Sequence record: NC_103192.1
Length of the DNA: 64,000 bases
Source of the DNA: a phage
Strand: one strand, 5' to 3'
Below are positions 1,681-52,027 of the stretch, one piece after another. The position numbers were made by a program, and so were the translations under genes. The notes beneath the pieces were generated by a model. The model saw only the letters and a program-made list of their open reading frames with translations. It was not told the DNA's origin and searched no databases. How positions within the stretch are numbered: the first letter of the stretch is position 1; the number at the start of each line of letters is the position of its first letter.

Positions 1681-2163
1681 ATGTCAGATTTTATGTGGAA
1701 AGTAGGTTACGCAGCTCCTGAAATGTGTGAGGCTTGCTTTGTGAAAATAGGCCGCGAGGATATCGACAAAGTGATCCTTAAGTTTCGTGATGTGGCTGTG
1801 ATCGGCAACCGAGTGCTTAAGCACTTAAAGAATCTGAAGCTCACCAAAAAGAAGTTCTTCGGACTTTTCGAAGAGAAAGTCGATGCTTGGACCCATTGCA
1901 TTCAGGAAGCTAAATCTCACTACAGTGCTATCGTTACCCCAGAACGGGTAGCCAAGATGGAAGGATTTATCAACAGCACAGAGTTTGAGTGCTTAAAGGC
2001 GGCTCTTGATAGTTATCCAAAGTGCCTCAAACACCTTGACAAGTATGTGGAAAAGGATGGGGAAATGTATCTCACCCTGGACGCATACTATGAGATGCAA
2101 GAAATTTTAAATTTAGATTTGACATTGGTATCCACCGAGTATACAATAGGTATCCGGGTTTAA
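1681..2163 (+). CDS. hypothetical protein
   Basis: 160-aa ORF preceded by AAGGAGA RBS. Confidence 0.6.
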   Translation: MSDFMWKVGYAAPEMCEACFVKIGREDIDKVILKFRDVAVIGNRVLKHLKNLKLTKKKFFGLFEEKVDAWTHCIQEAKSHYSAIVTPERVAKMEGFINSTEFECLKAALDSYPKCLKHLDKYVEKDGEMYLTLDAYYEMQEILNLDLTLVSTEYTIGIRV

Positions 2164-2171
2164 CACTAGGC

Positions 2172-2196
2172 CCTGCCCGAAAGGGTGGGGCTTTTT
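2172..2196 (+). terminator. rho-independent terminator (GNRA-loop hairpin ccctgccc-gaaa-gggtgggg + T-run)
   Basis: 8-bp stem with GAAA tetraloop followed by CTTTTT; identical copy at 14251. Confidence 0.6.
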
Positions 2197-2979: not shown

Positions 2980-5047
2980 ATTCATGGCATCTGCATATAA
3001 CCGCTATGGAGAGCCTAACCCAGTTGCAACAAGATACAAAAGCGGAGGCAGTATGAAACGAGACTATCGTGATGAAAAAGAGGTCGAAACTGTAGAAGCT
3101 GTTTTAGAAAATACTAAAATTGTCCCTGTTCCACAACAAAATATCGGACTGATGGCTGCACAATATTTTGGGGTGCGATCAGCATTGTCTCAAGAAGACG
3201 GGGTAACGGTCACTGCAACATATTTCCCATATTACGACCGCTACGGTAATCTATCCGGTTTCAAAAAGCGCGATTGGTCTAAGCCGAAAGAGCAGAAAGG
3301 GCACTGGTCTGTAGTAGGGATCGTGAAGGCCAGCTCCCAGATGTTCGGTCAAAAGCTGTGTGCATCCTCCAACAACCGTAAACAGATTAACGTTTGCGAG
3401 GGGGAGGGTGATGTTATTGCAGCATGGCAGGCTGCATATCAGATACAAGTAAAAGGGATTCTCACCAATGCTAAAGCCCCAGCGAAGGTGAAGCAGTGGG
3501 CTAAAGAAGTCCAGGATGGGATCGATGCAGTTATCAACGGCGGCGATCTGGCAGGAAAACCCTGCCTGCCTTTTGTTGGAATTAACTGCGGGTGTGCAAA
3601 CGCCGTAGACACTTTTGCGAACAATGAGAAATTTATCCGTAGCTACGGAACAGTGGTCCTTGCAATGGACAACGATGCAGCTAACGAGGTAGAGAAGCAA
3701 AAACACGTTATCAAAGGTGTTGAAGCCACACATAATATCGCAGCATTTTTGATGGCTGATAACGTTTACCACGTGGAATACCCAGGTGAGGTAAACGACC
3801 CTGATGGTGTAAAAGATATCCGTGACATGCTGAAGGCTAAAAAGCTGGAAGATATTGTCAACATGTTCCGTCACCCAGTCAAATATGTGCCTGATGCTGT
3901 ATCTGATTTAGAAGACTTCTCCATTGAATCTCTTCGTAAGAAGACTTCTAATGGCGTAGATATCAGTGCGGAGTTCCCTAAATTGCAGAAGATGCTGAAA
4001 GGACTCCACAAAGGCACCTTGATGATGCTGACAGGACCATCTGGTGGCGGTAAAACAACTGTAGCCAAGAAGCTGGAACACTGTATTGCAAGATACTTGA
4101 TGGATCCAACATGCCCTAAAGCTGATGATTATGAAGAGGATGATCGCCTGTGCCTGATTCACCTTGAAGAGGATCCAGAGGAAGCAATCAACTCTCTATA
4201 TGCTAACCAGTTAGGGTTTGATGTTAAAGAGTTTGTTGAAGACCCCAGTCAGTTCCTGACCGATCAGGAGCATGCTGAGATTCATCAATCTTGGGCCAAG
4301 GCCGGAAAAATCAAAGTGTTCAAACATTTCGGTTCTATCCCTGTAGATGAACTGATTACCAAGCTTAAACAAATGGTATGTCTGTATCATTGCCGTTACA
4401 TTGTGCTGGATCACCTGTCCATGGTGATTTCAGGGCTTAATGTTAAGGATGAGCGCAAAGAACTTGACATGGCTATGACTCAACTAGCCGCGTTCTGTAA
4501 GCAGTTTAATGTGTTTATCCTGGTGATTGCTCACCTGAAGCGCACAGAGATTGTACCTCCGAAGGATAAGGATGGAAATCCGTTACCTTTCTGGTACCCT
4601 GTACGAAAAGAGAACCTTCGCGGTAGTGCCGGATTGGAGCAACTTAGCTGGGTGGTTGTCGGGGTAGAGGCAGAGGAGATGGTGGATCGTTCCCGTGGAC
4701 GTGTCCGACTGGTAGGTCTTAAAAACCGCCCAGCAAAAACCTTAGGTATTGCAGACACTCTAGTTATGGATCCCCACACAGGCAAGTTCCATGATGCCAG
4801 CAACTGGTACTGGGACAAAGAAATGCAGATGTTTACAGACGGGGAAGGTGGGGAGGTTGTTTGGAGACCTCAGGCTATGTTTGAGGATCAGGAGCATGCA
4901 GTTGTAGAAACACCTGTGGGCAAGGTTGTGGCTGATAAGGTTATAACTCCTGCTGTTAACCCTGTTGACACACAGGAAGATCTTCAGTACGATGATCCAT
5001 CCTCTGACCCGGTCCCTGGTTTTGAGGATGATGAAACGCCTTTTTAA
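2969..5047 (+). CDS. DNA primase-helicase (T7 gp4-like: TOPRIM primase + DnaB-family helicase)
   Basis: TOPRIM motifs VCEGEGD and VLAMDNDAANE; Walker A GPSGGGKTT; Walker B-like IVLDHL; 692 aa. Confidence 0.85.
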   Translation: MGSKFMASAYNRYGEPNPVATRYKSGGSMKRDYRDEKEVETVEAVLENTKIVPVPQQNIGLMAAQYFGVRSALSQEDGVTVTATYFPYYDRYGNLSGFKKRDWSKPKEQKGHWSVVGIVKASSQMFGQKLCASSNNRKQINVCEGEGDVIAAWQAAYQIQVKGILTNAKAPAKVKQWAKEVQDGIDAVINGGDLAGKPCLPFVGINCGCANAVDTFANNEKFIRSYGTVVLAMDNDAANEVEKQKHVIKGVEATHNIAAFLMADNVYHVEYPGEVNDPDGVKDIRDMLKAKKLEDIVNMFRHPVKYVPDAVSDLEDFSIESLRKKTSNGVDISAEFPKLQKMLKGLHKGTLMMLTGPSGGGKTTVAKKLEHCIARYLMDPTCPKADDYEEDDRLCLIHLEEDPEEAINSLYANQLGFDVKEFVEDPSQFLTDQEHAEIHQSWAKAGKIKVFKHFGSIPVDELITKLKQMVCLYHCRYIVLDHLSMVISGLNVKDERKELDMAMTQLAAFCKQFNVFILVIAHLKRTEIVPPKDKDGNPLPFWYPVRKENLRGSAGLEQLSWVVVGVEAEEMVDRSRGRVRLVGLKNRPAKTLGIADTLVMDPHTGKFHDASNWYWDKEMQMFTDGEGGEVVWRPQAMFEDQEHAVVETPVGKVVADKVITPAVNPVDTQEDLQYDDPSSDPVPGFEDDETPF

Positions 5048-5061
5048 TGTTTAACAAAGAG

Positions 5062-5105: not shown

Positions 5106-8100
5106 ATGAGCATGTATAGCTTCGATTTTGAGGCCTCCGGGCTTTTGGAAGATCCAGATCTTTATTATCACTGCGGCCTGTTTAAAGAGCTGAATAAGAA
5201 CCGTTTTATGCTGTTCCTCCCTCTAAATGACCGCACACACTACTCCGAGGAGGATATAGAGAAGGCTAAGAACTTTATTCTGGCAAAGAAAACTCTTTAT
5301 AAAGATTTTGAAGTTCGCATAGCAGATTTTTCAGAGTTGGAAGGTTGGCTTACAGGCAATTCTGACTGGTCACCAACAGCTTTGAACTGCCATAACTGCT
5401 ACAGTTATGACTTTATGCTGATGGAGAGATTATCCGGTATTCATTTTGATATGTTCCGTGATCCTAAATGCATGGGTACTATCAACGATCACCAGGTTAA
5501 CCTGTTTGATACGTTGGCGATGAGCCGAATCTTGTGGCCTGATCGCCCTTTACCAAAAGGTTGCCCGGACGCTGTATTCAACCCGGTTACTAAGAAAATG
5601 CAGCCTGTTGGTCCTCACGGCCTTATGGCATGGGGCTACGCTCTTGGTAACCAGAAAGTTCAAATTGATGACTGGCGCGATCTTCCGCTGTGGAAGTATG
5701 TGGATCGTGTATTTGAGGACGTTATCATCCAGGAGCTGCTCTGGAAAGAGCTAGTAGCGGAATCAAAAGGTGTATTCTACGGCAAATCTGACATGCAGAA
5801 CTTCATGTATGACCCTGCCAAAGAGAAGCCTAAAGGATTCAAGAAGATTACCTGGAAGAATGCATTACGCCGAGGCATGCTGCAGCACTTCCTGATGGAG
5901 CTGCAGGCCCGTCAGGGTGTGTATTTCGACATAGATGGGGCTATTGCTTTACGTGACCGTTGCGATGCGTGGATGAAAGAGATCGCTGATCGTGTTGAAC
6001 CTCAACTCCCTTTAAAAGAGTTGTCAATATCTCAGCGGCCCAAGTTCCCTGAAAAGCCGTTTAACCAAGATGGGACAATCTCCAATAATGGTTGGAAATG
6101 GTTAAAAGATAAGCTTGGCTACCCTGTGGACATGAGCGCTTTAGATTTCAAAGCCCCACCTAAGCGAGCATTTACCTCCACAGGAGATGTCAGTAAGATG
6201 GGGATAAAATGGTGTGAAGAGATGGGCTGCAAAGACCCCGATAAGATGGCTGCTTTCTTGAGAGGCTATATTAAGGGCACTTCCACACCACAACCTTTAC
6301 CTAAAGAGCTGATGGATCAGGCAATAAGTGATCTACAGCAGAAGCGAATGCCTGACTGCAAGATACCTATGAAAATCAGCAATCAGGACGACATTAAGCG
6401 ATACCTGATCAGTGCTGGTTGGCTTCCGACAATGTGGAGAACTAAGGATGTAACTAAAGACAGCAAGAAGAAAGCTCTACCTGATGCAGATGTTGATGCA
6501 CGAGTATATGCATATATGGACGAGCTTTTAGAGTCAGAGTATTGTGACCTAATTATCAACTTCTGGAACAAAACTGATGCTAAGTTTCAGACAACAGTGC
6601 ACAAGTTCCGAAGCTTTCCTAACTCCGAAAGGATTAAAAAGGAAGTATTCGGGAAAATACGCAGAAAAGCTAGGGCACTTATTACTTCCCCGCAACTGAA
6701 AGATACGTTTGGACACCTATGCCCGAATCTTGAAAGATTGAACGGAGAGATGGCTAAAGATATCGTCTTGTGGTTATCATTGCGAAACCGCAGATCGGTA
6801 CTTGATCCAATCAAGGAGGATAAGGTTGATACTGGTCTTCTTAATCACCCACGTTTGAAGATTGACCATAAGCTTCCTGCTAAAAGCTCTGGATTAACAA
6901 ACACTTCCCGACAGAAACACAGTATTTGTGCAAACATGCCTAAACCATCTCCTAAAGTGGTTATGGGTAAAGAGATGCGTAGTCTGTGGGGTGTTCCTCC
7001 AGGATACTTTGAGATCGGTATTGACGGGTCTAACTTGGAGCAGCTTATCGGGGCTTGGGGTGCCTTTGAGTTCGACAACGGCCTGTATTACGATGTTGTA
7101 AGTAACGGCGATGCACACTGTTATTCAGGAGATACACAAATTCTCACGGAGAAAGGGTGGGTGAGGTTTGAAGATCTTGATCCGGGAACACAAGTGTTCC
7201 AGTACGATCACAACACCTCGTCGATGAACCTTGTTACTCCATTAAATTACGTTAAGCGTAGTTATTGTGGGGATATGTATCATTTCCACAACAGCGGTGT
7301 GGATTTTATGGTTACAGATCAACACAGGATGCTGACCGTGGATCACAGAAGCAATAAATTGTTTGAAGATTTGGCAAAAGACCTGAAAGCAGGTAAAGGG
7401 TCTAATTCAGGAAGAAGGTTTATCCATGCGGCAGAGTTTTATGGGAATACAACCTTATCTCCTGCCCAGGTTAATTTGCTTATTGCTATTCACGATGATG
7501 GGCACTTGCATACAAATAAGGACGGCAGCATCGTGTGCAGGATTCAGGTCGGGAAGGGCAGAAAAGTTGCAACGCTTTTAGATACTTTTTCTGCTCTAAG
7601 CCTTAGTTATGTAGAGCAGAGCGGGAAAACCACAAAAGGGGGCTTACTGGCGAGAAGGTTCCAATTCCACGTTCCGTCCTGGGTATTTGAGTTTTTGGAC
7701 AGCAATAAGGATTTCACCTACAACCTGATGGACCTTGATAAAGAATCTAAAAACCTGTTTATAGCTTCTTTATCTAACTGGGACGGGTGGGTATCTTCCG
7801 AAGGTGGAAAAGTTGCCTACTACTCTCAGGCCGAGTGCAGGAAGAAATCTGTAGAGGTTGTGTCTGCGCTGGCTACTCAGTGTGGTTTACGGAATAATAC
7901 GGTAGCGATTCACAAAAAAGGTCGTTCCGTACAGCACAGAATCACGATTGGTAGCAAACAGAGAGCAGGGTTGCTGACACTATCTAAAGAGTCTGTCGAG
8001 GTGAGCGGTTCTTTGGTTTATTGCGTTACCGTCCCTTCTGGAGCAATCATTGTGAGAAGGAATGGTAAAGTGGCAGTGTGCGGTAACTGTAATAACGCCA

Positions 8101-8498
8101 AAGCTTACTCTTCTGTAGCAGGCAAGGAGATTTCCCGTAACGATGGTAAGCCTGTCACGTACGGTGTTATGTACGGGGCACAAAAAGATAAAGTTGCAGA
8201 TATGCTGGACATCTCTCCAGAGTTGGGACAAAGGGTAATCGATGCGCTTTGGGATGCCAACCCCGGTCTTAAGGGGCGTAAAGAGGATCTGGAGAAATTC
8301 TGGGAAGCAACTGGTAAGAAGTTTATCTACTCTTTTGATGGTCATGCCATCTGGACCCGATCTAAACACTCTTTACTTAATGCATACCAACAAAATGGTG
8401 GTGCATCGTTGTGTGACTTAGTTGGGATACTCATGCACCACCAAATGGTGAAGCGTGGGTGGTACGATGAAGGTGTTCGCCGTATTATCTATTACCAT
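5106..8498 (+). CDS. family A DNA polymerase, exon 1 (contains intein 7119..8087)
   Basis: 3'-5' exo motif FDFEASGL; Pol A motif A IGIDGSNLEQ and motif B RNDGKPVTYGVMYGAQ flanking intein; ORF stop 8502..8504 lies in intron. Confidence 0.85.
7119..8087 (+). mobile_element. intein (about 323 aa) with LAGLIDADG-type homing endonuclease-like insert, in DNA polymerase between motifs A and B
   Basis: N-terminal block CYSGDTQILTEKGW, C-terminal ...VYCVTVP...VCGN followed by +1 Cys; internal LLIAIHDDGH and LFIASLSNWDGW dodecapeptide-like motifs; exteins rejoin to ...SNGDAH|CNNAKAY... matching T7-like spacing. Confidence 0.75.
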
Positions 8499-8826
8499 AA
8501 ATAACATTGTGGCTTCGTGCAGTGATGCACGTCGAAAACCTCTTTAATTGACGGGAAGGCTAAGTTGACTTTTACACCTAAACATGGTAAAAGCTCGATA
8601 TGCTAATCCGCAGCGAAGCATCCGAGAGGATGAACGTTCAGAGACTATCGAAAGCATAGCTCCAGCATAGTTTGGTGTGAAGAAGCGAGTAGAGTAGGCC
8701 AGCAAGTGCGGTCGAAATGAGAGGTGCCTTGGTAACAAGGCAGTGAGATAGTCCGATCCATACGGGAAACTGTATGGCTATGCACGTAATGGTGCGGGGT
8801 AGCTTAACGACCTACCTGAACTATTG
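8499..8826 (+). ncRNA. group I self-splicing intron (no ORF) in DNA polymerase motif C
   Basis: Exon ends on U (..YYH, cat) with IGS-like GUGG at intron nt 10-13; core elements P-like ttgacgggaagg, Q-like aatccgcagcg, R gttcagagactatcgaaagc, S gagatagtcc; terminal G at 8826; splicing restores YYHDEYQLQV (Pol A motif C HDE). Confidence 0.75.
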
Positions 8827-9180
8827 GATGAGTACCAACTTCAAGTACCTGACACACCGAAGTATAAGACTGTGTACACCTTCGACACAATCGAAGAACT
8901 GGAAGCATTTAAGGCAGAGCAGGAGGCCAAACTTCATGTGTTCGACGGTCATAAGTACAAAAAGGCACGCAAGGATGAGGACGGAAACGAAGTGGTTGAC
9001 AGAGACGGAAACACGGTGTACGATCCTATCCTGAACGATGACGGAAAGCTTGAACTTATCTGGAGCCCTGTGGGTGAAATGGTGGTGCATTGCTTCTGGC
9101 AAGCTTCTAAAATGATGGGCGTCCCATTCCAGATCACAGGTGAATACTTGTGTGGGGCTAATTGGGGTAGTTGTCACTAA
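8827..9180 (+). CDS. family A DNA polymerase, exon 2 (C-terminal 117 aa)
   Basis: Begins DEYQLQV completing motif C; ends ...GANWGSCH, which I recall as resembling the T7 DNA polymerase C-terminus. Confidence 0.8.
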   Translation, partial: DEYQLQVPDTPKYKTVYTFDTIEELEAFKAEQEAKLHVFDGHKYKKARKDEDGNEVVDRDGNTVYDPILNDDGKLELIWSPVGEMVVHCFWQASKMMGVPFQITGEYLCGANWGSCH

Positions 9181-48344: not shown

Positions 48345-49307
48345 TCAGCAACTACAACTTCCATAGTGCTTCACTCGCTCGATAACTTCCGCTTGCTTAC
48401 CTGTGTTATACGGCCTACTGTTCGGGCTGGAGAGATAGCCAGACACTCTTCGGATCACTGAGATATATTGTTCATCGTGGCATCCGCACGCAGGGCAGCA
48501 GAACCCTTTAGCTGTTGCACTGAACTCACCAGAGAAACCACACTTGAGACATTTATCCACAGGTTGGTTAATACCAAAATACATAATATGTTTATACCCG
48601 AAGTCAACAAGAGCCTCTAAAGCATCTAAGTTGTTTTTCAGATTTGGTGTCTCTATGTACCCAATGTTGCCACCAGAGGAGATCATAGCAAAACCTTCCT
48701 CATACTTCCACTTATCAAAAGGTGAGCTATTGATCCATACTGGCTGGTGGAAACTGTTGGTGAGGTATTCATGCTCGTGCTTCAACACTTCAGGATATTC
48801 ACGATCCAGGCAGGTTGCAGCCTTATAGCATAAACTCTCAGAAGGGGTGCCGTACAAGCTAAATGCTAGTCCACTTTCCTTCTTATATCGCTCACAAGCA
48901 TCCTTCATGTGCTGAAGGATTCCAAGAGCTAAAGCCTTGTCACCCTCTCTGCCCAAAATCTGACAGGTTTCATACACACCAATATACCCAATACTGATGG
49001 AAGCGTACCCGTCATAGAAGAGTTTATCGATACTCTCTTCAGGATCCAGGCGAGCAAGAGCTCCTTCACACCACATGATAGGATTCTGCCCGGCCTTGGT
49101 GCCTTTCAGACGGTTAACCCTTACAAGGTGAGATTCATATGCCAAATCCAGATACTCGTCAAGAACGGCAAAGAAATCAACACCTTCCGTCTTAGCTTTT
49201 GCCGCAATCATTGGTAGGTTAAGGCTAACAACACCCAAGTTGAATCTGCCAAGGTATTTCTCCTCGCCTGTTACAGGGTCGCTATATTTCGATAAGAAAC
49301 TTCTACA
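48345..49307 (-). CDS. nrdD: anaerobic ribonucleoside-triphosphate reductase, exon 3
   Basis: Glycyl-radical motif RRVSGYL and C-terminal Zn ribbon CLKCG...CPACG; junction inferred ...SMG|CRSF..., intron ends on G at 49308. Confidence 0.75.
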   Translation of the reverse strand, partial: CRSFLSKYSDPVTGEEKYLGRFNLGVVSLNLPMIAAKAKTEGVDFFAVLDEYLDLAYESHLVRVNRLKGTKAGQNPIMWCEGALARLDPEESIDKLFYDGYASISIGYIGVYETCQILGREGDKALALGILQHMKDACERYKKESGLAFSLYGTPSESLCYKAATCLDREYPEVLKHEHEYLTNSFHQPVWINSSPFDKWKYEEGFAMISSGGNIGYIETPNLKNNLDALEALVDFGYKHIMYFGINQPVDKCLKCGFSGEFSATAKGFCCPACGCHDEQYISVIRRVSGYLSSPNSRPYNTGKQAEVIERVKHYGSCSC

Positions 49308-50069
49308 CATTATGTTCAAGGTGGTTCGCAAGGCCACCCCCGCACCTTTACGTGCTGCTGCATGTCCCCATGCAGATCAGACTATATCTTCACACTTAGT
49401 GTGTCTACCATTTCGAGTGTCATCAGCTTACACCCTACACCGCTACATTCATCACGGTTAGTCGTTAGGCATTTCGTAACAGAACTCGTAATCATAGTTA
49501 TTAGGTGCACCACGTTTCAGGATAGCAGATATTCTTTTTCTATCTATTCCTAAAACATCAGCACAACATCTCAGACTCTTAAAGTGAATAACCACACCAG
49601 TTAATTTGTGGGTGGCTTTCACCCCGTGACATCTTGTGTAAAAAGCATAACAGTTGTTGTCGTATCCTTCTTGAGTATTGTCTGGGCAAGCTCCCCACTC
49701 AAGGTTGTATACGCTGTTATCTTTCCTGTTGTCACCTTTGTGCTTAACATATGGTAAATTGTCTGGATTTGGTAAAAACGCTTCAGCAACAAGTCTGTGA
49801 ACCCTTAGGCAAACAGTCTTTTTGTTCTTGCGTATCCTGACAAGACGGTAACCTGTGTTTATCTCTTCCCACGAATGAATAATTCTTTCATTTTCGTATC
49901 GGGTGCAATAAACATTGCCCATCTCGTCAATTTCATAACCTTCAAAATCACGAATTTGTTTTCTCATTTCAGGACTCCTCTTAGTCAGGAGTTCTGTTAC
50001 GTTTAGCACGGGATTGTCCGTTCTGGAGTTTCCCCGTTTAGATAGATTTTACATGAGCAGTTATAGTTT
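49308..50069 (-). ncRNA. group I intron 2 of nrdD, with HNH ORF between Q-like and R-like elements
   Basis: Exon 2 ends on U (..atg ggt); P-like aaacggggaaac and Q-like caatcccgtgc in 5' part; R-like aacgactaacc and S gaagatatagtc in 3' part; last nt G. Confidence 0.6.
49458..49967 (-). CDS. intron-encoded HNH homing endonuclease
   Basis: VHRLVAEAFLPNP...VKHKGDNRKDNSVYNLEW HNH motif; ATG after AAGAGGAG. Confidence 0.75.
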   Translation of the reverse strand: MRKQIRDFEGYEIDEMGNVYCTRYENERIIHSWEEINTGYRLVRIRKNKKTVCLRVHRLVAEAFLPNPDNLPYVKHKGDNRKDNSVYNLEWGACPDNTQEGYDNNCYAFYTRCHGVKATHKLTGVVIHFKSLRCCADVLGIDRKRISAILKRGAPNNYDYEFCYEMPND

Positions 50070-50378
50070 ACCCATGCTTGTTACTTTGCCGTCTGTTGAA
50101 CCTGTCACTTTTCTATTTAGCGGTACAGATACGAAGTCGGGATAAATCCGCTCTGCAGAGCATTCCAGAGCCAACCGTTTCAAATCATAGTTAGGATCCC
50201 CAGGATTCATGTTGACACCCTCTTCTAGGAAGAACAGCACTTTAGGGAACACAGGTGTGATACGTTCTTCACCAAGACCCATTTTGTGGACTTTCAAGTA
50301 ATTTTTGGTAATCATTCTACCAAAGACCGAGGTATCCAGTCCTAAACTTAATGTGATGAATGGAGTCTGCTGTCTCCT
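50070..50378 (-). CDS. nrdD: anaerobic ribonucleoside-triphosphate reductase, exon 2 (5' boundary approximate)
   Basis: In-frame region with no start codon; ...SLGLDTSVFGRMITKNYL..GLGEERITPVFP...EEGVNMNPGDPNYDL matches what I recall of NrdD internal conserved region. Confidence 0.55.
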
Positions 50379-51175
50379 CCCTGTGTTTCCACAGGGCCAG
50401 ACTATCTCTTACTCTACTTCAATAAGATAATAACCCTTTATTGTGAGATGCTTACCTTCGGCATTTCCTTCGATAGCCCTATGAACGTTACCTACGTTCA
50501 AATTTAAGGCTTTTGCACAGGCATAGAGTGAAGGATATTCACCAACCAAGGTTTTCCCTTTGTATGCCTGCACTTTCCTATAGCACTTACCTGGACAAAG
50601 TCCTGTTCGGAAAGCATGTCTCTTATTATCTTCCGGCAAAACCCACTCTAGGTTAGACGGATGATCATTCAATGTATTGCCATCTTTATGATTCACTTCC
50701 CAGTTTTCAGGGTCTTCTGGGACATCTGGCAAACAATACAAGGCAACAACCCTTGAGGTTTGGATTCGAATCTTTTTACCTTTGTGGTTGAAAGAGTACA
50801 TATAACGGCGTTTAACATGCTTGTTACCTTTTCCATAACCTCCCCACAATATTGGGTGTAGCATTCCACGTTTTCCGTATACGTTTCCAACCTCATCAAT
50901 CACATAGTTTGACTCTTCACCATTAAGAATGATCTTTTTCATAGAGCCTCTCCATTTCGAAGTTAGTATTTCAACTAACCCCTACACTACTTGGTTCAGA
51001 AATGTTTGTCAAGCATCTCTGCCTTTCGTTAGTCGTTACAACCGTTCCAACTCCTGTAAGAACTAGTCACGGGATTGGCGTAGCTTTCGCCTTAGCGTTC
51101 CCCGTTAGCCGGATTTACCGACCCCTCTTATGAGGTTAGGAGAGTTTTACAACGGCCAGTTTGTTAACCGTTGAC
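50379..51175 (-). ncRNA. group I intron 1 of nrdD (core in 5' 220 nt, HNH ORF in 3' extension); boundaries +/- about 15 nt
   Basis: P-like ggctaacggggaacgc, Q-like caatcccgtgac, R-like gtaacgactaacgaaagg, S-like ggttagttg upstream of ORF; architecture as I recall for T4 nrdD (sunY) intron. Confidence 0.55.
50409..50942 (-). CDS. intron-encoded HNH homing endonuclease
   Basis: VNHKDGNTLNDHPSNLEWV HNH motif; RBS GGAGAGG. Confidence 0.75.
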   Translation of the reverse strand: MKKIILNGEESNYVIDEVGNVYGKRGMLHPILWGGYGKGNKHVKRRYMYSFNHKGKKIRIQTSRVVALYCLPDVPEDPENWEVNHKDGNTLNDHPSNLEWVLPEDNKRHAFRTGLCPGKCYRKVQAYKGKTLVGEYPSLYACAKALNLNVGNVHRAIEGNAEGKHLTIKGYYLIEVE

Positions 51176-52027
51176 AGAAGTTAACGTATTGATTTGATAG
51201 AGCAAAGTCTGCATGCTGTCAAATACGTCTTTATCTGTCATTTGCATTGCAACAGTCTCAGCATCTGGCAACCAATGTTCCTGGCAAAATTTAAGGTTCT
51301 TCTCATAGGTCGCTTCAGCATACTGTGCCAGATAATGATCAATATGACTCATGGTCTGACCGCCATATTGAGCACTAGCTACTGCACTAGAGATTTGGCT
51401 AAGGATTGTTGTTGCAACCCCTATTGACTTCGGCTTACTGACATGGGCGTTACCAATGTTGAATCCGTTTTCCAACATATCTGGATAATTTACCAAACAA
51501 CAGTTTGTTAACGGACTGATCAAATAGTCAAGATCATGCACATGGATGAAGCCTTTGTTGTGCTCTTCGGAGACACGGTCTGGCAGGATCTGTGTTGATG
51601 CAAGGTGTTTGCTAAGGATGCCTGCAAGCAGGTCACGATGAGTATGCACATGATTAGTAGGCTTATTTGCGTTTTCTTTTGTAAATTCATCACAAGTACG
51701 ATCCAAGAAGCCACTAATATCGGCAAGCAGTTTTCCACCTGCCTCTCTGTTATTATCTCTTGTCTGTCTATACTGGATGTATTCTCTGGCTGCACATTTT
51801 AAACCCATATCCATAAGAGCATCTTCAACAAGGATATGGATATTTTTTACAGAGATCGTGCACTGGTCAGTTGGCAGATTGTTGGCAACAACTTCATTAA
51901 CCGCACAGGCAATCCGGTAAGCTTCTTCTTCAGTATGTCCAGACTCAAGTAAGGCGGACTCTGCCGCCTTGATCACCTTAATTCCGTTATAGACCTCTTC
52001 TCTACCGTCCCGTTTTACAACTTTCAC
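51176..52027 (-). CDS. nrdD: anaerobic ribonucleoside-triphosphate reductase, exon 1 (3' boundary approximate)
   Basis: ATP-cone VVKRDGREE and IHVHDLD region; ORF stop at 51164 lies in intron; GTG start after GGAGAG. Confidence 0.75.

Follow-up and report, generated by a model that had tools for sequence, protein, structure and literature searches.

Group I introns have been known in phage family A polymerase genes since SPO1. The bnrdE and bnrdF genes of SPbeta, as Lazarevic et al. are said to have reported in 1998, need the removal of both an intron and an intein. We take motif C of Pol I to be H881-D882-E883, so that position 881 is the H/DE site found here (a slash within a codon or peptide string marks the insertion point throughout). 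PMC3428280 gives three insertion sites in phage family A polymerase genes, Pol I 674, 676 and 881; at 881 it places self-splicing introns of subgroup IA2 in the T7-like phages phiI and W31, with an HNH ORF in P6a, in a summary of Bonocora & Shub 2004. For the polymerase intron of CB7, which holds the HNH gene CB7_50, RT-PCR and Sanger sequencing have demonstrated splicing (PMC7344957, Table 3), and CB7 NrdA has both an intron and an intein to remove according to the same table. Polymerase introns in Vequintavirinae are mentioned in the searchable literature by Certrevirus papers only, and the introns discussed in the rV5 paper are those of the terminase only.

The locus described here lies in a 64-kb stretch of DNA, hereafter the window, from an rV5-like coliphage (Vequintavirus) whose closest relatives in genome sequence share ~94% identity with it over 24 kb. 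By their published description, the phiI and W31 introns resemble the window intron in their host gene (family A polymerase), in their position (Pol I 881) and in the P7.1/P7.2 elements of IA2 type; their HNH ORF in P6a is shared by the FV3-type sister alleles (FV3, Mangalyan), whereas the window copy is without an ORF. The hosts also differ, the window phage being a 137-kb myovirus (Vequintavirus) and phiI and W31 40-kb podoviruses, and no phage of ~40 kb with homology to the intron is present among the blastn matches listed. The spliced intron of CB7, a Pectobacterium phage of the Vequintavirinae, occupies the same YYH/DE site, is near-identical over its first 14 nt and can be aligned through P7, P9, P9.1 and P9.2, but it is 687 nt long and contains an HNH ORF (CB7_50, between CB7_51 and CB7_49), its P7.1 is minimal and its peripheral helices are shorter; CB7 has in addition a second, upstream polymerase intron that the window lacks. 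Like SPbeta bnrdE/F and CB7 NrdA, the window gene is a single essential gene of replication or nucleotide metabolism that a group I intron and an intein have both invaded. Unlike them, it encodes a family A DNA polymerase, and its two elements are 411 nt apart and assort independently among relatives. The intron is of the IA2 phage type and previously unannotated; some of its close relatives bear an ORF, and one homolog is known to splice.

A group I intron with exact boundaries

A covariance-model search with a group I intron model, the check proposed in the original prediction, was positive: the Rfam scan of the 64-kb window matched RF00028 (Intron_gpI) at 8489-8776 on the plus strand with a score of 73.7 bits (cut-off 50; E 8.1e-17). 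This match is full-length (model positions 1-253 of 253) and is the sole one at the gathering threshold in the whole 64 kb. Deletion of 8499-8826 gives a 3747-nt gap-free alignment, at 94.5% identity, with the polymerase CDS of NHEP1, a relative of the window phage in which this 3747-nt CDS is annotated unbroken. The predicted joined exons read ...TATTACCAT/GATGAGTAC..., and comparison with NHEP1 gives ...TATTACCAT/GAY GAR... at the joint (CAT/GAY). Shifting either intron boundary by one base fails to reproduce the intronless sequence and the boundaries are therefore unique, with U8498 as the last base of exon 1 and G8826 as the last base of the intron. The segment 8499-8826 is a real group I intron, precisely placed, and its coordinates (Table 1) are exact. 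A 3' splice site at G8776, where the Rfam model ends, was considered and rejected: it would leave the mRNA 50 nt too long and out of frame, and the stretch 8777-8816 consists of the conserved helices P9.1 and P9.2, which lie beyond the model end and account for the 50 nt from 8777 to the true 3' end at 8826.

Several features had been picked out in the original prediction from the letters of the DNA. Its description of an insert that ends in G, of an exon 1 that ends on U and of a GUGG resembling an internal guide sequence agrees with the boundaries given here, the GUGG falling within UUGUGG at 8507-8512. The insert was also described as ORF-less, and it contains only short ORFs (46-86 aa), each on the antisense strand or in another frame; no HNH or other ORF of plausible size and orientation appears within 8499-8826 in the ORF list. 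The upstream ORF was said to stop at ...IIYYHK and the downstream frame, which runs to 9180, to start (L)DEYQLQV and to end GANWGSCH like a polymerase C-terminus, and both are read in the sequence as claimed.

Table 1. Features of the interrupted polymerase gene and of its intron, in window coordinates.
Feature	Position	Strand	Basis
Exon 1 of the T7-like family A DNA polymerase, with the intein-coding segment inside it	5106..8498	+	ORF list; NHEP1 gap-free alignment; Pfam DNA_pol_A; T7 DNAP alignment
Intein, 323 aa, CYSGDTQ...VAVCGN, then +1 Cys	7119..8087	+	In-frame insertion relative to FV3; AceL NrdHF match
ORF-less group I (IA2-type) intron, 328 nt	8499..8826	+	Rfam RF00028; intronless allele; covariation-supported structure
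In-frame UAA after the first intron codon, where translation of unspliced mRNA ends	8502..8504	+	Read from sequence; Lys-stop conserved in all homologs
P1: exon CCAU 8495-8498 and intron AA 8499-8500 with guide UUGUGG 8507-8512	8495..8512	+	Rfam alignment; pairs in 13 homologs
P2 hairpin CGUGCA-GUGA-UGCACG, GNRA loop	8516..8531	+	6 of 6 pairs compensatory, 100% paired
P3 5' strand, partner 8719-8725	8538..8544	+	3 compensatory pairs, 90% paired
P4-P5-P5a-P5b domain	8549..8612	+	Pair counts; MFE fold gives P5-P5b
P4, A8551 bulged	8549-8555/8607-8612	+
P5	8558-8560/8602-8604	+	Pair counts
P5a/b	8565-8598	+	Pair counts; MFE fold
P6 8613-8615/8635-8637 and P6a hairpin CAUCC-GAGA-GGAUG 8619-8632	8613..8637	+	P6 covariation, 97% paired; FV3 and 18-1-2 comparisons
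P7 5' strand, bulged A8642, partner 8749-8754, P3/P7 pseudoknot, presumed guanosine-binding helix	8641..8647	+
P7.1/P7.1a 8648-8688, GUA-containing linker 8689-8696, P7.2 8697-8713	8648..8713	+	Covariation; homolog comparison
P3 3' strand	8719..8725	+	Pair counts
P8 hairpin GCCUUG-GUAA-CAAGGC	8726..8741	+	5 of 6 pairs compensatory
P7 3' strand	8749..8754	+	Pair counts
P9 hairpin, GAAA tetraloop	8758..8777	+	100% paired, 4 compensatory pairs
P9.1 8781-8796 and P9.2 8798-8816	8781..8816	+	100% and 98.5% paired; 2 and 3 compensatory pairs
Terminal guanosine (omega-G), 3' splice site	8826..8826	+	G in 14 of 14 homologs; intronless allele fixes position
Polymerase exon 2, DEYQLQV...GANWGSCH-stop	8827..9180	+	NHEP1 alignment; T7 DNAP alignment; exon-flank comparison

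The restored polymerase and its intein

The upstream ORF alone (5106..8504) encodes 1132 aa with the C-terminus ...GVRRIIYYHK, and joining the exons gives a 1248-aa frame without an internal stop in which the peptide across the RNA splice joint is IIYYHDEYQLQVPDTPK. With intron and intein removed in silico, the protein can be aligned with T7 DNA polymerase chains (PDB 1T7P family) at E 2e-13, which places GIDGSNLE on GIDASGLE of T7 DNA polymerase in motif A and YYHDEYQL on WVHDEIQV in motif C; the Pfam DNA_pol_A match is correctly placed and below cut-off. Removal of 8499..8826 had been predicted to restore an HDE motif, and it does so: CAT/GAT gives YYH/DEY, aligned to motif C of T7. By this reading of the codons, the intron separates the His codon of the catalytic motif from the Asp codon.

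The intein is an exact in-frame insertion, comprising polymerase residues 672-994, relative to the intein-less FV3 protein (GDAH/QNNAEAY). It begins with Cys, ends in Gly-Asn and is followed by Cys at the +1 position, where FV3 has Gln. Its residues 6-91 match the solved AceL NrdHF intein with E 1.7e-5, while profile matches are weak and below cut-off (Pfam Hint_2, 23.1 against 28.4; TIGR01445, 15.5 against 24.5), and a Pfam search of the intein gave no endonuclease domain, LAGLIDADG or other. Since this intein is real, the earlier proposal that the gene needs both RNA splicing and protein splicing is sound as an inference. The intein is polymorphic, being found in 6 records of a 50,697-record phage collection, where it accompanies the HNH-bearing intron twice, the 276-nt intron three times and an empty intron site once. 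The combination of intein and 328-nt ORF-less intron is absent from those 50,697 records. The combination in the window is therefore new to the collection, and the two elements assort independently.

Core secondary structure and covariation

A helix model built from the window sequence was applied to an alignment (A1) of 13 ORF-stripped introns, each with 12-nt exon flanks, which spans five phage genera and in which every intron occupies the YYH/DE site. PVP-SE1 was left out of this covariation set, ORF stripping having misaligned its 919-nt intron, which contains a LAGLIDADG ORF elsewhere. Standard pairs occupy 95.8% of the 826 cells (13 introns, 12 helices, P7 treated as a pseudoknot), compared with a mean of 84.5% (sd 0.7) in shuffle controls and 36-40% when the partners were slid by 1-3 columns. 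Compensatory changes affecting both sides occur in 30 of the 65 pairs, distributed over P2, P3, P6, P7, P7.2, P8, P9, P9.1 and P9.2, and the covariation score is 0.422 against 0.205, the observed values being reached by none of 500 shuffles. When the P3/P7 pseudoknot was mis-nested, P3 and P7 fell to 24-31% paired; thus, the pairing test discriminates.

P7, for which the core model requires a pseudoknot with P3, is 100% paired with 2 compensatory pairs. P1 is invariant, its six pairs being retained in 13 of 13 homologs, and the U8498.G8509 wobble at the 5' splice site is likewise U.G in all 13. P4 and P5 contain some unpaired cells in the alignment (84.6% paired), which are tentatively attributed to a register shift around the bulged A. 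The P/Q/R/S-like core elements, the guide sequence and the terminal G guessed in the original prediction find their counterparts in P4, P7 and P1 of this covariation-supported structure. A GCUA/UAGC pairing (8780-8783/8800-8803) in place of P9.2 was rejected, as homologs change to GCAA and lose it and P9.2 covaries. Folding the single sequence recovers P2, P5-P5b, P6/P6a, P8, P9 and P9.1 with a modest z of -1.95. A putative P10 of 4 bp could form between exon 2 GAUG and intron CAUU at 8505-8508.

Elsewhere in the window, nrdD (48345-52027, minus strand) consists of three exons separated by two HNH-bearing inserts with weak group I matches, and the 3' end of one of these inserts is closely similar to P9.1/P9.2 of the polymerase intron. 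A blastn comparison of the polymerase intron with the rest of the window returned only an 18-nt match, to the nrdD intron.

Subgroup features and tertiary motifs

P7.1/P7.1a and P7.2 are made up of the ~70 nt that separate P7 from the 3' strand of P3. P7.2 is 96% paired with 2 compensatory pairs, and the P7.1 stem varies among homologs as UCG/CGA, GCC/GGC and UUCC/GGAA. We take the P5 internal loop CUAAG...UAUG, by eye, to resemble the 11-nt GAAA-tetraloop receptor; L9 is GAAA in all homologs, L2 and L8 are GNRA loops, and the four loops may make tertiary contacts. The IA2 subgroup is recognised by P7.1 and P7.2 linked by G-U-A, a criterion quoted in PMC3428280, and such a linker is present in the window (CGA-GUAGAGUA-GGCC), in rV5 (GGAA-GUA-GACC) and in GEC_vB_MG (GGC-GUA-GACG). 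Placement in IA2 is supported by these features of secondary structure, from which the assignment is made.

Alleles and homologs at the insertion site

A blastn search with the intron matched 186 phage records; in 40 of these the match extends over at least 80% of the intron. The polymerase site exists in four states within Vequintavirus. It is without an intron in EdH4, V18, Murica, slur16, JES2013, NHEP1 and many others; it holds an intron of 842-843 nt, with a 168-aa HNH ORF in P6a, in FV3, Mangalyan and ~30 other records; the 328-nt ORF-less form of the window is found in SYGMH1 (98.8% identity), HMD-6 (98.2%) and JLBYU08 (94%, 329 nt); and a short ORF-less form of 276 nt, in which the P5a/b and P7.1a elements are reduced, is present in rV5, PDX, YP-6 and 241Ecol014PP. 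SYGMH1 and HMD-6, which are isolated and viable phages, carry copies 98-99% identical to that of the window in their essential polymerase gene, a point in favour of a functional intron. More distant homologs interrupt the identical ...YYH/DE... site in Avunavirus (Av-05, 18-1-2), Seunavirus (GEC_vB_MG, PVP-SE1), Certrevirus (phiTE, PBES02, CB7), the unclassified Vequintavirinae phage LTH01, Aeromonas phage 4L372D and Pseudomonas phage SPA01. Homologs begin with AARUAAYAUUGUGGC or near variants and all end in ...AACNNNUG, and each of the ORF-less homologs is matched by Rfam on its own (64.7-91.2 bits). The GenBank records examined contain split CDSs, some with spurious ORFs within the intron, and none of them carries an intron annotation.

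Exon 2 starts GAT GAG TAC CAA in 7 of 7 intron-bearing Vequintavirus alleles, covering all three intron forms, and GAC GAA TAT CAG in 3 of the 4 intronless alleles examined, a difference of four synonymous changes within 12 nt; exon 2 of Murica, the fourth intronless allele, matches the intron-bearing exons. The intronless sites read GATGAGTACCAA (Murica type) and GACGAATATCAG (EdH4 type). The GAUG:CAUU pairing of the candidate P10 would account for one of the four synonymous positions, and the others fit co-conversion, lineage or target variants resistant to the endonuclease.

Outside P6a, the window intron and the FV3-type intron are ~99% identical, and the two share their insertion site and exon flanks. 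The FV3-type alleles have a 528-nt segment, closed by a GGUGUAGUU/AACUACACC stem and containing the 168-aa HNH ORF, in place of the 14-nt P6a hairpin CAUCCGAGAGGAUG of the window. The ORF-less intron of 18-1-2 (Avunavirus), ~78% identical overall, has the same P6a stem with another loop. As the stem is common to so divergent an intron, the P6a hairpin is best read as an old ORF-less state and not as a deletion scar, and the endonuclease cassette appears to enter and leave P6a as a module. Lacking a homing endonuclease gene, the window copy would be unable to mobilise itself; it may be inherited vertically, or spread by recombination or through the HNH enzyme of a sister allele acting in trans.

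Proposed splicing pathway and alternative readings

In the pathway that we propose, the gene would be transcribed as a single pre-mRNA, in which the intron would fold into its P1-P9.2 core with the P3/P7 pseudoknot while the guide UUGUGG pairs with exon CCAU and intron AA, setting U8498 in the U.G wobble. A free guanosine bound in P7, at the G8643-C8753 pair adjoining the bulged A8642, would attack after U8498; the freed 3'-OH of U8498 would then attack after G8826, with the short P10 (GAUG:CAUU) holding the 3' exon, to give a ligated mRNA reading CAU-GAU-GAG (H-D-E). On unspliced RNA, ribosomes would halt at the UAA, leaving a polymerase without its catalytic Asp and Glu, whereas the spliced mRNA would yield a 1248-aa precursor from which excision of the 323-aa intein produces a 925-aa polymerase. 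By analogy with the same-site intron of CB7, the 328-nt ORF-less allele probably splices in the window phage, and presumably does so autocatalytically. We estimate at about 0.93 the probability that 8499-8826 is a functional ORF-less IA2 group I intron in the family A polymerase gene of an rV5-like coliphage, placed between the His and Asp codons of motif C.

Against this, the insertion might be a decayed intron that no longer splices, in which case the polymerase would consist of two separately translated chains (1132 aa and ~118 aa) that then assemble. Two CDSs are indeed called by ORF finders and GenBank annotators, a TTG at 8824 lies in the frame of exon 2, and precedent exists in the split NrdA of Aeromonas phage Aeh1, whose halves associate without splicing (cited in PMC7344957), and in one non-splicing CB7 intron reported in that paper. 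However, introns from five genera retain all of the ribozyme helices with compensatory changes, implying selection at the RNA level, and neither the U.G wobble nor the terminal G varies. Upstream of 8824 there is no Shine-Dalgarno-like sequence, the break would part His from Asp-Glu within one catalytic motif, and the same-site homolog of CB7 splices; we regard a decayed intron as very improbable. An origin of the insertion as an artefact of assembly or sequencing, or through chimeric joining, has no point in its favour and is refuted by independent records, as it is present at the same nucleotide in dozens of phage genomes that were sequenced independently, including 40 records with at least 80% coverage, and its likelihood is negligible.

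A further possibility accepts that the intron splices and concerns why it is kept. An occupied site could not be cut by the HNH enzyme of a co-infecting relative, and the ORF-less form might therefore persist as a cheap shield: an old, selected allele that 'vaccinates' the polymerase gene against a sibling's HNH while sparing the cost of the nuclease, and no dead-end remnant. The CAUCC/GGAUG stem in ORF-less alleles of two genera points to an old and maintained state, HNH-bearing, ORF-less and empty alleles occur side by side at 95-99% exon identity, and the clustered synonymous changes in 3 of 4 intronless alleles are what endonuclease-resistant targets would show. Yet the usual homing cycle (PMC1654191), in which invasion is followed by loss of the endonuclease, loss of the intron and re-invasion, predicts the same patterns equally, cleavage by the HNH protein is putative, and the synonymous cluster may mark a lineage or a co-conversion tract. 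We consider protection by the ORF-less allele a speculative and rather unlikely account of its persistence. If it were true, the HNH cassette, the intron and the intein would be three independently assorting modules in the Vequintavirus population.

Significance

The functional ORF-less intron favoured here is a common, polymorphic element of rV5-like phages, of a known kind and at an already described site, and it leaves knowledge of group I introns themselves unchanged. Its consequence for annotation is direct. In essentially every record examined, this rV5-like gene is entered in two or three pieces, each a CDS treated as unrelated to the others ('DNA polymerase' and 'hypothetical protein'), and recognition of the intron turns these into a single 925-aa polymerase with its catalytic motif intact, which corrects the annotation across a popular phage group. 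The locus also brings together all stages of the homing cycle, in the form of empty, endonuclease-bearing and two ORF-less alleles with an intein nearby, and these easily grown coliphages offer a convenient system for the study of intron and intein mobility and of endonuclease-mediated competition in co-infection.

The polymerase intein and its combinations with the intron

Across Vequintavirus genomes, the polymerase intein and intron sort independently of each other. The 323-amino acid intein of the window is inserted after NGDAH, between motifs A and B, with a spacing of 411 nt between intein and intron; its last two residues are Gly-Asn, where His-Asn is usual, and its +1 residue is Cys, at a position occupied by Gln in intein-less alleles. 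Pfam recognised no endonuclease domain in the 200-aa middle part of the intein. When window 7119-8826 was compared with the comparison loci L003, L004 and L005 and with further collection records, intein-bearing Vequintavirus records were found to carry the HNH intron (two), the 276-nt intron (three) or no intron (one), and the pairing of intein with 328-nt ORF-less intron seen in the window was absent from the collection.

Polymerase introns in related phages

In Salmonella phage PVP-SE1 (L013 1501-2419), the H|DE site is likewise occupied by a homologous intron, whose ORF, annotated gp016, is of LAGLIDADG type and not HNH. This ORF lies outside P6a, further 3' (intron positions about 192-785), which indicates that a different endonuclease family colonised the same intron in a different loop. 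A second HNH-bearing polymerase intron is present in Av-05 (L008), GEC_vB_MG (L009), CB7 (L020) and 18-1-2 (L007), where it interrupts the motif B region, with 336 nt (112 codons) separating it from the H|DE site downstream (Rfam match at L009 176-817, 63.8 bits). The window, in contrast to these four phages, lacks this second intron, and its intein is located ~25 codons upstream of the corresponding position.

Codons 1-4 of exon 2 (window 8827-8838), examined together with L016, L017 and L003 against L018, contain four clustered synonymous differences, GATGAGTACCAA versus GACGAATATCAG. All intron-bearing alleles fall on one side of this division and three of four intronless alleles on the other; Murica, which is intronless, has exon sequence of the intron-bearing type. 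The cluster could be a signature either of endonuclease resistance or of co-conversion.

Annotation and record labels

Mechanical ORFs with a start within the intron or at TTG 8824 have been entered in several GenBank records as 'hypothetical protein' genes (e.g., rv5_gp221, rv5_gp222 and FV3_00207), and these genes are artefacts of the intron having gone unrecognised. Approximately 20 MG0656xx records with genomes of 135-143 kb are labelled as Campylobacter jejuni phages ('Campylobacter phage C7, C9, A112b, C12, A147...') and share 95-97% identity with E. coli rV5-like phages across the polymerase locus; the host label looks doubtful and may reflect contamination or mislabelling.

Coordinates of the intein, the nrdD features and the mechanical ORFs
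Feature	Sequence	Coordinates	Strand	Pfam NRDD profile positions
Polymerase intein	window	7119-8087	+	
nrdD exon	window	51164-52027	minus	1-154
nrdD exon	window	50061-50315	minus	180-263
nrdD exon	window	48345-49337	minus	263-562
HNH ORF in one nrdD insert	window	50409-50942		
HNH ORF in other nrdD insert	window	49458-50009		
Mechanical ORF	window	8774-9034	+	
Mechanical ORF	window	8824-9180	+	
Mechanical ORF	L006 (comparison locus)	1731-2184		
Mechanical ORF	L002 (comparison locus)	4790-5050		

Probable related introns in other genes

The anaerobic ribonucleotide reductase gene nrdD (window 48345-52027, minus strand) is composed of three exons, and each of the two inserts between them contains one HNH ORF. 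Both inserts are probably further introns of the same family as the polymerase intron. In the second insert, which holds the HNH ORF at 49458-50009, the 3' end (about 49338-49380) is similar to the P9.1/P9.2 part of the polymerase intron. The Rfam group I matches of the two inserts (27.7 and 32.9 bits) fall below the gathering threshold, probably because of the ORFs inside them.

The P4'-P6-P7 core segment (intron positions 106-156, window 8604-8654) was also matched elsewhere at 92-94% identity in Vequintavirus genomes with an intronless polymerase; among the matches listed, one record has a feature at this site, annotated as the large terminase gene. A weaker match of about 84% occurs in roughly 86-kb genomes of E. 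coli and Salmonella phages, which are probably Felix O1-like. These core-segment matches suggest that a single intron family has spread across several genes and phage groups.
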